Of a stretch of DNA of 64,000 nt, positions 1,909-63,400 are shown one piece after another. Origin of the DNA: Octopus vulgaris. Taxonomy: Eukaryota. The stretch lies in assembly GCA_951406725.2 (NCBI GenBank), contig OX597833.1, positions 40,982,001 to 41,046,000 on the forward strand. The letters are read 5' to 3'. The notes beneath the pieces are model-generated. The model had not been told where the DNA came from. It searched no databases and was given only the letters and a program-made list of their open reading frames with translations. Position numbers and translations under genes: made by a program. Every line of letters starts with the position of its first letter. Positions within the stretch are counted from its first letter, which is position 1.

Positions 1909-2465
1909 AATTAAATAAGGGTAGAAATTGGTATTAATCAATTAAAACCAGTGGCTTGGCATATTTTAAAAAATCCGAAGATTTGTGCTACATACAAAAT
2001 TTAGAGGACTGACCACTAAAAGTGGACAGCCTATATGCTAAACGTAGAAGTCAAATCGCCGTGACCACGAAGAATGTGTTCTCAAGAAAAATCTCAGCAA
2101 TAAAGCAAAATGTAAAAATAAGCAAGGCAAGTGAAGATATACGAAATAAAGAACGATTACCTATGTACCATTAGTTTCACGTGTTAATATTTACGTATAT
2201 GGACACGCAAACATCTGCAAGATCATCAGCATAGTCTGTCGTTTACAAAACACAATTTCCAGAACAAGACACAGAACGCTCAACCGAAATCCAGCATGTA
2301 TAAAGTTCTACTGTTTATATTTAGATGTATCTTTTCAAATGCCCTCAGTTTGGCGCGCTGAGACTGGAAACTAATCTGCAGTTAATGAACTACAGCAGTA
2401 AATTTACCGGTTAGAGAACATTTTTTTTTATTTAGAATTAAATAAGGGTAGAAATTGATATTAAT
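1909..2465 (-). mobile_element. Hammerhead-bearing PLE-type terminal (pLTR-like) element whose 3' end abuts (TA)n
   Basis: Contains the hammerhead at 2161-2234. Its terminal aattaaataagggtagaaattg occurs at both 1909 and 2436, and a related terminus lies in the opposite orientation at ~32890-32990. Confidence 0.55.
2161..2234 (-). ncRNA. Type I hammerhead ribozyme, canonical core
   Basis: Minus strand: stem I CUAUG, CUGAUGA, long stem II, GAAA, CU-aau-GG, UA, stem I' CAUAG. Predicted cleavage after GUA. Confidence 0.75.
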
Positions 2466-2599
2466 TAATATCAATTGATATCAGAAATTGATATTTGTTA
2501 TTTTATATTTAATATTTCTATTATATGTAATTTTCAAGATGGTGTAATTTAATTGTTCATTTTGAATTGATAAAAGGTATTTTTTTCTAATTTTTATAT

Positions 2600-2686
2600 A
2601 TATATTATAGTTTGTGAAATTTGATTTAGTATTTCTAAATTGAATTTTTCCCTGTAAGTTAGGAATAATATTCCCTCAAATTATCA
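2600..2686 (+). repeat. Dispersed (TA)n-associated repeat, family F
   Basis: gtgaaatttgatttagtatttctaaattgaatttttccctgtaagtt...ttccct recurs at ~30500-30575 (+) and 54483-54570 (-). Confidence 0.6.
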
Positions 2687-3084
2687 TATATATATATATA
2701 TATACTAAAGGCGGTGCTCCAGCATGGCTGAAGTCAAATGACTTAAACAAATAAAAGAATAAAAGAATAATGTAAAAAAATGTACTTTAAAAGATGTCAG
2801 GAATATAGAATGGCACGATCATTTTGGAAGGAATATTTTGTATTATGTGTCTAAGCGCTTTCGTTGTTAACGAGACTGAATCAAGTATTTTCTTCTAAAA
2901 TCTTGCACACACATGCTCACGCAAACATATACAGACATATAAACACATACATATACGCACAGACGTGTGTGTGTGTGGGTATGTGGGTGGGTGTGTGCTT
3001 ATGTATGAGTATGTCTGGATTTATAAACGCGTGAAAAGTATATTTTTTGATGGTGTATGCATAAATGCAAATGATTGGCAATTA

Positions 3085-3225
3085 TTAGGTTGTCCCAAAA
3101 GTTCGTAAACACTTGCGAAAATTGAATTTTTACTCGCCAAGTACTAACAAAAACAACAAAAATTATTCCTCAAAATAAAGACCATTATTTTCCAAGACTT
3201 TCTACGAACTTTTGGGACAACCTTA
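3085..3225. mobile_element. Mariner-type MITE (141 bp) with TA TSD
   Basis: Terminal inverted repeats (TIRs) ttaggttgtcccaaaagttcgta / tacgaacttttgggacaacctta, flanked by TA. The TIR resembles that of the mariner at 7507. Confidence 0.85.
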
Positions 3226-4149
3226 TAATAAGTGTTCGTGCGCGTGTATGAGTGCGTGAACATACGTGTGAGTGTGGGAGGAGGAAAAGGTAAACGTACA
3301 AACACACTTAAATACATATATATATATGTGTGTGTGTGTGTGTGTGTGTGTGTGTGTGTGCGTGTGTGTATACATTCATATGTATATATATATATACATA
3401 TATATATATATATGTACATAGGCATACATTAACACATTCACTCATATGCGTGCATAACGCATACGCGCGCGCACTTAGACACACACACACACACACACAC
3501 ACACACACACACACATACACACACACACACACACACGCACACACACGCACGAACAAACGCACGCGTACGAACGAGGGAGGGAGATGAAATACAGTATAGC
3601 AGATAATCCACAACGCATACTCCATCATTCACGGCGATTAGGAAATCTCACGCTTCATATATTCATATATTTGCTTAAATATAAATTGTATGTATGTATG
3701 TATGTATTAATGTATGTATGTATGTATGTATGTATGTATGTATGTATGTATGTATGTATGTATGTATGTATGTATGTATGTATGTATTAATGTATTAATG
3801 TATGTATGTATGTATGTATGTATGTATGTATGTATTAAATATGGTAAGGCAATCTGAAAACCAAAGAAACTTCTAAACTTTTACCGATTTTTATGAAATG
3901 TTTGTGTTAACGGACACAAGTTAGCGGAAGCTAAATGTAACGGAAGTTAATTAGTCCGATAATGGTTTTCAAAGTTAACTTAAAAGTTAAATTGTTAACG
4001 AAAATGTTATCTTCGTTAATTAACGATTAATGGATTTACGGGCTTACTCCCAGCTCTGTATATATATATATATATATATATATATATATATATATATATA
4101 TATATATATATATATATGTATTAGTAGATACACACACACACACACACAT

Positions 4150-60869: not shown

Positions 60870-61826
60870 GCATGACCTGTATGGTAAAAAGCTTGCTTCC
60901 TAACCACGTTGTTTCGGGTTCAGTCCCACGGCGTAGCACCTTGAGCAAGTATTTTATACTAAAGTATTTTACACTAAGTTACGGAGATGCAAACACTCAC
61001 AAATCCACTCACAAGGCCTTGTGAGTGGATTTGATAGAAGAAAATCGAAAGCGGCCCATCGTATATGTGCATGCGCGCGCGTGTGTGTATAGACACACAC
61101 ATGTATGTATGTATGTATGTATGTATGTATGTATGTATGTATGTATGTATGTATGTATGTATGTATGTATGTATGTATGTATGCATGTATGTATGTATGC
61201 ATGCATGTATGTATGTGTGTGTATGTATGTATGTATGTATGTATGTATATGAATGTATGTATGTATGTGTGTATGTATGTATGCATGTATGTATGCATGT
61301 ATGTGTGTATGTATGTATGTATGTATGTATGTATGGATGTATGTAAGCATGTATGTATGTATGCATGCATGCATGTATGTATGTGTGTATGTATGTATGT
61401 ATGTATGTATGTATGTATGTATGTATGCATATATGAATGTATGTGTGTATGTATGTATGCATGAATGTATGTTTGTATGTATGCATGTATGTGTGTATGT
61501 ATGTATATATCTATGCATGTATGTATGGGTTTGTATTTATGTATGTATGTATGTATGTATGTATGTATGTATGTATGTATGTATGCATTTATGTATGTGC
61601 GTGTGTGTGTGTTTTTGTTTGTCTTTTACCACTGTTTGAAACTGGTGCTGACGTGTTTACATCTCCGTAACTTAGCGGCTCGGCAAAAAGACCCCCAAGA
61701 GAACAAGTACCAGGCGTACAAAGAAAATAAGTATTGAGGTCACCTTGCTGGACTGAACGTTTCAAGGTGGCACTCCAGTATGGCCACAGTCCAATGACTG
61801 AAACAAGTAAGACATAAAGGATAGAA
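60870..61826 (+). mobile_element. SINE family B with ~550-bp internal (TATG)n expansion and an internal inversion
   Basis: Head gggttcagtcccacggcgtagcaccttgagcaagt; tail gtggcactccagtatggccacagtccaatgactgaaacaag. Confidence 0.82.
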
Positions 61827-62156
61827 TAGATATACAATTTCGAACGCAATAAAGTTTTAAGAAGAGCATAGAAAGATTGGGTGTTTTACCCTTATAAGAC
61901 GGGAAAAAAATTGCCAGCAGGGGGCTCCGGGTTCGTACCTATACCCATTAGATATCGGCTGAGTTCCCTATCGCTATGGTAAACGGCCCCTGGCAATAAT
62001 TGCTGTGAATTTTAATGCTAAATTATAGCTTTTGGAATGCGACAACATTTTATAAACAAATTTTGTAATCGTCGAATGTGTTGATATTTTACTGACAAGA
62101 AAGTAAATTTCGAATGCAGTAAAGCTGTAATAACAGCAGAGAAATATTTACATGTA

Positions 62157-62669
62157 CCGTAAATCCTCGAGTATAGTCCGCCCTTGAGTATAATACGCAG
62201 GGGATTTTTAGGGGGCTGTACTTCTGAAAATTCCAAACCTAATGTATAATACGCACCCCTTCTCTAACTTGAGTCGTGCGTAATTAAGCCAGCAGCGCCT
62301 AGTCGAACAAACACTTCCGCGCATGCGTAATACAATATTGGTAATGTTCTTAACTGTTATATGGGAATGTAAATATGTAAATATGTTTGCAAATTGTTTT
62401 TGCTACATGTTATTCTGTGTTCTGAATACTTTTATTTTAATAAATGTTGCTTACTGTAAGTTATAGATGATTCTTTTATGACTTCATTGCTTTCAGGCAT
62501 AGCTTAAGGTATTTTCGCACCCGACATCACAAAATGCGTCTCAATAAATATTGCCGGACATTGCTTAGAAAGTATTTTTCATTTTTAACCTCGTATATAG
62601 TACACACTAGGGATTTTGACCTTCAAATTTTTGGGGAAAAAAATGCGGATTATACTCGAGGATTTACGG
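62157..62669. mobile_element. Tc1/mariner-superfamily (pogo/Tigger-like) MITE, 513 bp, TA TSD
   Basis: TA|ccgtaaatcctcgagtatagtccgc ... gcggattatactcgaggatttacgg|TA. Confidence 0.92.
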
Positions 62670-62671
62670 TA

Positions 62672-63400
62672 TATCTATTTCATCCTATACCTTTTACTAC
62701 TCACAATATTGGATTGTATCGAGACGATTAATTAAACATATCATCACACATTAAGCAGTTGTAAAGAAAATCTCAAAAATGTTTTGATAGCATAGAGCTA
62801 TTTAAGTATCTAAGTTTGACTTTTAAATGCATTTTCAGAAACCTAAATGAAATACTTTGAACATAAAACAAATAGTCTTGTCATTTGCCCAGCAATATGT
62901 TTAGAAACTTCATATCTTTGTTTCAAAAGATATTTAAGATAGCGACCCGTTACTACCAAGGGCCACAGCAGATAGTGGCTCCAATGAGAATATCTCATAC
63001 ACCCCATGAAATCAATCTTCGAATAGGCCTAAGATGATTATGTGAATTGCACCTTTTTTTTTCATTCATGTTAAGTCTAACGTATAAAAGAAATGATTGA
63101 GTTACACAGATATTGTAAGTTTACAAGAGGCGTTCATGGAAATTCACTCACAATTGCAATTCCAGCATGAAAATGTTTATCTCAATACTGCGTTATTGAG
63201 AGAAATTAAGATGAACTTTTGTTGACGCTATCAATTATTTTTTAATAAGCCCACTACTTGCGACACCGGTGCCTGAATAGCCACTGAAAGTCTATAAATC
63301 ACTGACGGGGGAATTCCACTACTGTGTCTAACCGGACGTCTGCCATTGTGAAGTCCAAAGAAGGGCGAAATCATGTGACCTGGCAGTTCCGGCGGTTATC
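62672..63400 (+). pseudogene. Highly decayed Penelope-like element (RT YRDD motif through to 3' hammerhead relic)
   Basis: YLF...NIGLYRDD at ~62672-62728, followed by KP and SCHLP-like remnants; hammerhead-like fold at 63340-63386. Confidence 0.6.
63340..63386 (+). ncRNA. Hammerhead-like fold with U3:A8 core
   Basis: CUGCCA, UUGUGAA, GUCC aaagaa GGGC, GAAA, UCA ug UGA, CC, UGGCAG. 6-bp perfect stem I; position 16.1 is C rather than U. Confidence 0.5.

Follow-up and report, generated by a model that had tools for sequence, protein, structure and literature searches.

Hammerhead ribozymes are nearly always present in the canonical clades of Penelope-like elements (PLEs) and were dispensable for insertion in one in vitro system, so their role in these elements is an open question. 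The described systems closest to the repeats considered here are: (i) PLEs of the Hydra clade, including Hydra-1_Obim, for which a hammerhead and a (TA)n preference are given in the supplement of Craig 2021 (PMC8557442), (ii) Neptune-type PLEs, (iii) the animal retrozymes that lack long terminal repeats (non-LTR retrozymes), and (iv) Poseidon, an Anolis PLE studied in vitro (Frangieh 2024, PMC11167929). Cervera and de la Pena (2014; PMC4209133) reported numerous variable minimal hammerheads in each animal genome, most of them single and probably representing truncated PLEs, and a 2026 paper on octopus repeats (PMC13282606) counts 31 recently active Penelope-like families, with the word 'ribozyme' absent from its main text. 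Here we describe hammerhead-bearing repeats in a 64,000-nucleotide (nt) stretch of Octopus vulgaris DNA (C20:40982001-41046000; hereafter the window), which is microsatellite-rich and has a GC content of 35%, and in their copies on the 227 analysed contigs (2.8 Gb in all). An original prediction, made from the letters of the window, had proposed about 15 type I hammerheads belonging to at least eight families, mostly at (TA)n, and had interpreted them as a swarm of short ribozyme-processed RNAs mobilized by one PLE protein.

All 15 motifs were recovered, displaced by at most ~70 nt, and the count of families held: the 10 subfamilies form eight unrelated groups, since A1, A2 and B are 73-79% alike. 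In our reading, to which we assign a probability of about 0.88, most of the elements are 5'-truncated 3' ends, carrying the pseudo-LTR (pLTR), of several coding PLE families, likely written into (TA)n by their own reverse transcriptase (RT) and GIY-YIG nuclease, and family H is a tandem unit lacking an open reading frame (ORF) that likely borrows a protein of the Hydra type. The main system is already in print for this animal group.

At the level of the family, the 15 motifs are confirmed as genuine type I hammerhead folds. The window copies are decayed and nine of the 15 fail even a widened descriptor individually, so the fold is clear at this level only, and it was judged on 25-90 genome copies fetched per family and chosen by likeness across the motif. 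All family majorities show the same series of parts: stem I, a core of 7 nt, stem II, GAA, a stem III that is short or palindromic, and a letter other than G at position 17. Of 54 pairs examined, six in each of nine unrelated families (four in stem I plus 3-8 and 15.2-16.2), 52 are Watson-Crick, against 22.8 +/- 4.9 after permutation of the 3' partners among families with hand-set stem III lengths; one of 200,000 permutations matched the observed value. The full type I core (C3 U4 G5 A6 N7 G8 A9, G12 A13 A14, A15.1-U16.1, H17) occurs in the majorities of B, C, D, F, H and Y, the last being a further family described below. The strict core is broken in the majorities of A (U6), E (C4), G (G3-C8) and I (U3-A8), of which G and I keep the 3-8 pair, and the base of stem II is weak in D, F, H and Y. 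In family I, the covariation score is 0.245 versus 0.188 +/- 0.016 for shuffles of a kind that kinship alone can exceed (23 of 25 loci, two being without the motif), and a stem II pair is C-G in nine copies and G-C in seven.

An origin of the folds by chance in AT-rich repeat DNA is virtually out of the question. Against 15 local dinucleotide shuffles, a comparison proposed together with the original prediction, matches were in excess at all stringencies run: the strict descriptor gave one match in the window (shuffled mean 0.07), one core mismatch gave five (0.33) and two core mismatches gave six (1.5). The widened descriptor, designed after the variants had been seen, gave seven (0.23 +/- 0.44, maximum 2, in 100 shuffles), namely six of the 15 predicted sites and one chance match in a TA tract. 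The nine window copies that fail it, with 0-5 letters off the family majority, would suit a chance origin, as would the 1.5 matches per window that two-mismatch shuffles yield. They are outweighed by majorities that fit the fold in every group, by the 52 of 54 pairs, by the identity of one family with a published hammerhead, and by the exact family-pattern matches genome-wide (15,487 for the A type, 5,745 for G, 763 for E and 242 for H), with none in the reversed controls.

The hammerheads proved to be of the PLE type, as predicted, and longer copies reach PLE frames. To judge from these frames, six of the eight groups (A/B, C, D, E, F and G) consist of 3' ends, truncated on the 5' side, of PLEs that code for protein, either of Hydra type (C-F) or of Neptune type (A/B and G), clade names that are based here on motifs and not on phylogeny. 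A Naiad PLE was rejected as parent, since it needs an N-terminal GIY-YIG and the nuclease follows the RT in A, C, G and Y.

The Hydra-clade PLEs described in PMC8557442 share with the families found here a C-terminal GIY-YIG without CCHH, a CxCx5C linker, DKT, (TA)n targets, and a 4-bp stem III with a short loop, often with U.U at the base of stem II. The hammerhead published for Hydra-1_Obim, an element of Octopus bimaculoides, agrees with that of family C in its stems, its core, its loop and the position of its cut. The family C copy of the window (17664-18030, + strand) consists of the end of a Hydra-type GIY-YIG frame followed by the pLTR, with the core at 17954 and the predicted cut after 17996; at least 19 of 30 family C loci have such a frame among the matches listed, some of them inverted. 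Family D is represented by a 3' tip with tail (31476-31687, - strand; core 31654 with two private core changes), a tail alone without hammerhead (55101-55196, + strand) and pieces in inverted arrangement without a complete hammerhead (55848-55955), and a same-strand frame is present in 3/30 loci. The family E element (55231-55380, + strand) combines an inverted tail (~55231-55283) with a hammerhead tip (core 55307, C4), and a frame was found in one of 90 loci (0, 0 and 1 in three sets of 30). For family F (33031-33312, + strand), composed of a 3' tip (33139-33312; core 33169) and an inverted 5' arm (33031-33128), one of 30 loci has a frame. Eight F copies (L189, L192, L194, L200-L203 and L207; contigs C31 and C4) share long flanks, that is, they lie in duplicated segments, and the F counts are inflated to that extent.

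The coding pieces of C, D, E and F are 28-50% identical to the frame of family Y, which is present in the window as an internal RT-thumb fragment without hammerhead (54084-54482, - strand) and as a tail alone between TA tracts (56469-56551, - strand). It had been predicted that two of the motifs lie downstream of PLE coding remnants; this is so for 17954, directly behind its own remnant, and fails for 55307, since the RT fragment at 54084-54482 is of another family and on the other strand. Two Y frames, 722 and 718 amino acids from stop to stop, contain RWR (47), DKT (125), CxCx5C (576), CxxC (676) and CxH (704), with a C-terminal GIY-YIG after the RT, that is, the motif set of the Hydra clade; Y also carries its own hammerhead in a pLTR and is inserted in (TA)n, as elements of that clade are. 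Among 13,524 first-look candidates, 150 were scored (92-100% protein identity), and the family is young. Its unit (L021:3745-8508) measures ~4.8 kb, including a 2.6-kb 3' untranslated region (UTR) composed mostly of microsatellites, whereas Hydra elements are generally shorter than 3 kb (a tendency rather than a rule; PMC8557442). Pfam searches gave no match for five window frames and, for the Y frame, one weak unrelated match and nothing else. In PMC8557442 one octopus family of the Hydra clade is listed, compared with at least four more here that have frames (D, E, F and Y).

The Neptune-type PLEs of PMC4209133 resemble the present set in their many variable families per genome, in motifs that are mostly single and stem from truncated copies, in an additional base inserted between 9 and 10.1, in the G10.1-C11.1 pair, in a palindromic stem III and in the occurrence of a U3-A8 variant; the A and G frames have a CX2-5CxxC linker and cysteines inside the GIY-YIG, as Neptune elements do. 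The U6 core of A and the G3-C8 core of G were not met in the available text of that paper. Ten of 30 family A loci match an 830-nt frame-bearing stretch (seven over >300 nt) that encodes an RT thumb, a linker of the form CX4CxxC and a GIY-YIG domain with cysteines inside it, and one of 30 family B loci reaches a frame of the same type. In the window, A1 is present as a 5'-truncated Neptune-type element comprising 3' UTR and pLTR (4458-5103, + strand; core 4974 with U6, predicted cut after 5001, TA at the end) and as a 3' tip (57311-57507, - strand; core 57440). A2 is present as two 3' tips (5358-5501, + strand, core 5379 with U6 and one break in stem II, TA at the end; 59387-59552, - strand, core 59519), and B as three (40453-40669, + strand, canonical core at 40536; 40987-41182, + strand, core 41052, an insertion of its own and no tandem unit; 44005-44198, - strand, core 44138).

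The family G element (50099-50435, + strand) has a main arm with tail (50228-50435) and an inverted arm (50099-50232) that stops at the short 3' end, with G3-C8 cores at 50252 (+) and 50224 (-). Its parent, an RT with a C-terminal GIY-YIG, is visible in four of eight long stretches, where the frame, containing RT motifs and a CX3CxxC linker, stands behind a long microsatellite-rich UTR similar to that of Y; when moving, elements of the Y and G kind would spread simple repeats. The Neptune-clade motifs are present in the A (L094) and G (L386) frames. The G frame gave a Pfam GIY-YIG match with E 1.4e-4, just below the Pfam cut-off, and the A frame matched no Pfam family; the two are 31% identical over 42 amino acids only, and G could belong to another C-terminal clade. 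Short best-scoring copies had suggested that E and G are non-autonomous, and E was also considered as a circle joined through the TA tract; both proposals were dropped, as longer copies carry frames. In L350, G copies form a tandem of 3.6 kb that lacks a PLE frame and represents a local duplication. The description of the hammerheads as minimal suits A/B, G and I, in which stem III is palindromic and loopless, and does not suit C, D, E, F and H, in which it has 4 bp and a 1-nt loop.

The insertion sites point to the same origin. (TA)5+ lies within 250 nt downstream at 10 of 14 independent window sites, compared with 30% of random positions (binomial p 0.002), and among the genome copies (TA)4+ within 375 nt downstream was found in 71/79 (A1), 11/17 (A2), 41/45 (B), 26/30 (C), 35/36 (D), 38/41 (E), 39/47 (F), 36/44 (G), 17/20 (H) and 20/25 (Y), against a background of 38%. 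The predicted position of the motifs upstream of (TA)n is thus borne out in the window and in 65-97% of the A-H and Y copies, the exception being family I (7/21). The 3' ends are fixed at TA, which is the pattern left by PLEs and agrees with the predicted placement, and the 5' ends are ragged. The distance from the hammerhead to TA has one fixed value in A/B and two values, 60-100 nt apart, in C, D, E, F, G, H and Y; the longer of the two 3' ends adds a tail, and inverted 5' arms mostly stop at the shorter. Two alternative 3' ends together with inverted arms at TA are a PLE signature in Craig 2021 (PMC8557442), and Frangieh 2024 (PMC11167929) explains the two ends as two internal start sites of reverse transcription. 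Poseidon resembles the present families in two start sites that bound a tail, in AT-rich targets and in an uncut RNA template; it belongs to a different clade, and its tails are 30-40 nt long versus ~60-100 nt here.

The tails of C, D, E, F, G and Y contain a predicted short hairpin with CTC...GAG-like arms, whose letters vary by family (e.g., window 56469-56551(-), 55231-55283(-) and 50380-50435), and this hairpin may signal where reverse transcription starts internally. In many copies of family E (L352-L381), the junction of inverted and main arm falls on one and the same short palindrome immediately 5' of the hammerhead. The arms differ by 0.5 letters in 26 within one copy and by 2.2 between copies (12 rows, 8 loci), which is what de novo formation of the arm at every insertion would produce.

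The fixed 3' ends lie 40-300 nt downstream of the predicted cut. In 1.5 Mb of flanks, 66 of 80 incidental copies have their 5' end upstream of the cut and three within 3 nt of it, a count from BLAST ends that is imprecise and misses very short pieces. As most 5' ends pass through the cut site and few lie near it, cleaved linear RNA is not the main template, and the copied RNA is mostly uncut at the hammerhead, in agreement with Frangieh 2024. By analogy with the lizard element (Frangieh 2024), the protein of each autonomous family would nick AT-rich (TA)n DNA, and reverse transcription would start at one of two internal RNA sites bounding the tail. It would usually stop within a few hundred bases, leaving 3' tips, and a second priming would produce the inverted arm; the RNA of H would be copied in trans by a Hydra-type protein. 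The hammerhead lies inside the copied stretch; rather than serving insertion, it would likely act now and then, with help from a dimer or the protein, to cut tandem read-through transcripts. A palindromic stem III suggests such dimer-dependent cutting of tandem transcripts (PMC4209133; review PMC6765202).

These data bear directly on the interpretation given with the original prediction, namely that hammerhead cleavage frees most families as short non-autonomous RNAs, which a single TA-seeking PLE protein mobilizes in trans. Most copies are indeed 150-300 nt long and without coding sequence, animal retrozymes are described as PLE derivatives in a preprint (Li, Clavereau and Pollet 2026), and family H fits. 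For A-G this interpretation is largely refuted, and as a whole we judge it very unlikely: six of the eight groups extend into frames of their own, the parents are of at least two types and not one, 5' ends are ragged with three of 80 at the cut, and a head-to-tail unit is seen in H alone. The retrozyme part of the prediction thus survives for H and falls for A-G, whose longer copies reach coding frames and which lack the traits of retrozymes (a tandem unit and no coding parent).

Family H is likely a Hydra-type retrozyme-like element, the sole such family among the eight groups. Its unit is 527 nt long, with a GC content of 34% and a longest ATG frame of 35 amino acids. The window copy (1902-2469, - strand) comprises one head-to-tail unit plus 41 nt of the following one, with a Hydra-type hammerhead (core 2229-2223, predicted cut after 2166). 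Among 30 position-ordered loci, all 11 copies that reach the start of the unit run on into its own 3' part, and nine of 25 loci in a second, overlapping set do the same; among the first 100 of the 242 pattern matches there are two dimers (534 and 538 nt apart). Because H has the stem III of family C and a stem II that begins with U.U, a Hydra-type origin is likely, and H likely borrows a Hydra-type protein in trans. With the animal non-LTR retrozymes (PMC7229834; Li et al. 2026 preprint) H shares, at the DNA level, the lack of an ORF, the non-coding head-to-tail unit (as dimers only), the type I hammerhead, the GC content of 34% and PLE-type ends. Its length exceeds the 150-450 nt of Cervera and de la Pena 2020 (PMC7229834) and falls within the 51-972 nt of the preprint. 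It differs in being mostly dispersed as monomers to dimers at (TA)n and in its Hydra-type hammerhead. No sequencing run listed as RNA carries H. Pieces of the families are present in all four sequencing-run contig sets, which give no starts, strand or level and whose RNA status is guessed. For cephalopods, a search of the open-access literature for retrozymes yielded only Craig 2021 (PMC8557442). A piece at window 32884-33001, 74% like the 3' part of H, possibly belongs to a related family.

A competing account, to which we give slightly less than an even chance, derives H from a Hydra element by internal deletion, with linear tandem transcripts as the template and no circular RNA. It would agree with the finding of dimers only, two among the first 100 matches listed, and with two 3' ends and inverted arms as in the autonomous families. 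The wrapping of all 11 sufficiently long copies onto their own end is simply explained by a circular template, which speaks against the linear account, and a linear multimer fits it equally.

Several observations weigh against the truncated-PLE reading preferred here. The links of B, E and F to a parent are one locus each, where a neighbouring unrelated insertion is possible, A2 is tied to a frame only via its likeness to A1, and H and I lack a parent: same-strand PLE frames were found in 0/25 and 0/30 H loci and a parent frame in 0/25 loci of I. To these are added the motif basis of the clade names and the imprecision of the 5'-end count. As to the fold, conservation of the core within families exceeds that of the flank only slightly and in 10 of 11 families, D showing the opposite, and Rfam at the gathering score gave no match for nine loci. 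Rfam on the window at E up to 10 gave 583 matches, and all 150 listed are microRNA models on microsatellites.

The altered cores are held by most copies of their families. U6 was found in 96 of the first 100 listed of the 15,487 A-type matches, with all four letters at position 7, and the sister family B keeps the canonical core; C4 occurs in 36/41 E copies. G3-C8 is present in 44/45 G copies and in 98 of the first 100 listed of 5,745 G matches, none of which has C3-G8, and U3-A8 in 14/21 I copies. Neither a natural G3-C8 core nor a U6 core was found in the open-access full-text literature, a scope that does not include the survey of Lunse et al. 2017 (PMC5785218), which may list them. G3-C8 is an engineered variant, used as rescue, in Frangieh 2024 (PMC11167929) and natural here, natural U3-A8 was reported by Perreault 2011 and by Cervera and de la Pena 2014 (PMC4209133), and low activity is given for a position-6 variant by Perreault 2011. 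The natural G3-C8 core, the U6 core, a Hydra-type retrozyme and four further Hydra-type families, one of them young, may be new.

A question of function, compatible with an origin as PLE tips, is whether the fold hardly cuts and persists as a passenger or as a shape for protein binding. The U6 of A with its free position 7, the C4 of E, and a stem II that begins with U.U or a weak pair in F, H and Y would agree with little cutting, as would the low activity reported for position 6. In Frangieh 2024 (PMC11167929), hammerhead mutants left in vitro insertion unaffected, reads ending at the cut were absent and cleavage was protein-dependent, and eight of nine Xenopus retrozyme dimers remained uncleaved in the preprint of Li, Clavereau and Pollet 2026. 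We nevertheless find this view rather doubtful, given that the 3-8 pair, a contact of the catalytic fold, is kept by double changes in G and I, that H17 is never G in 11 families, and that G5, A9, G12-A14 and A15.1-U16.1 are held in every family majority.

A bolder joint reading, which we regard as quite improbable, would take this genome as a natural mutagenesis of the PLE hammerhead, with more than 15,000 U6 copies expected to be slow and more than 5,000 copies of G3-C8, otherwise met only as an engineered rescue, and with the Hydra-derived H circulating as a 527-nt RNA circle. If this were true, PLE hammerheads would be protein-gated switches under selection for fold and not for speed, and the short hairpin common to Hydra-type tails would mark two internal start sites of reverse transcription. 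The families provide a panel for testing whether cutting matters: they form eight or more hammerhead groups and include a young open-frame family, a satellite without ORF and naturally altered cores by the thousand. With ~15 such tips per 64 kb, short TA-bound repeats of such genomes would be better annotated as PLE ends than as unknown short elements.

The remaining hammerhead of the window belongs to family I (63230-63450, + strand, limits approximate; core 63346), an old repeat whose copies are 69-79% alike, with the known U3-A8 variant and without a bond to TA. A further TA-bound family, J (34028-34172, - strand), has 12 copies in the fetched loci, all with TA 80-140 nt downstream; it was rejected as a type I hammerhead, since its CTGA[A/T/G]GA and small hairpin are accompanied by GAAU in place of GAAA and by no adjacent stem I. 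Other CTGANGA sites (795, 883, 4317, 33490, 34814, 35340, 36290 and 53160) showed no hammerhead family when compared against the fetched loci only. Long palindromes shaped like inverted PLE insertions adjoin TA tracts at 17178-17608, 18096-18347, 19391-19523, 43204-43631, 48363-48606 and 53620-53843. Two more abundant interspersed repeat families, probably similar to short interspersed nuclear elements, have many copies in the window, the first at 389-553, 6510-6751, 15249-15491, 21520-23190 and 38309-38660, and the second at 16384-16804, 24106-24547, 41486-41942 and 45355-45833.

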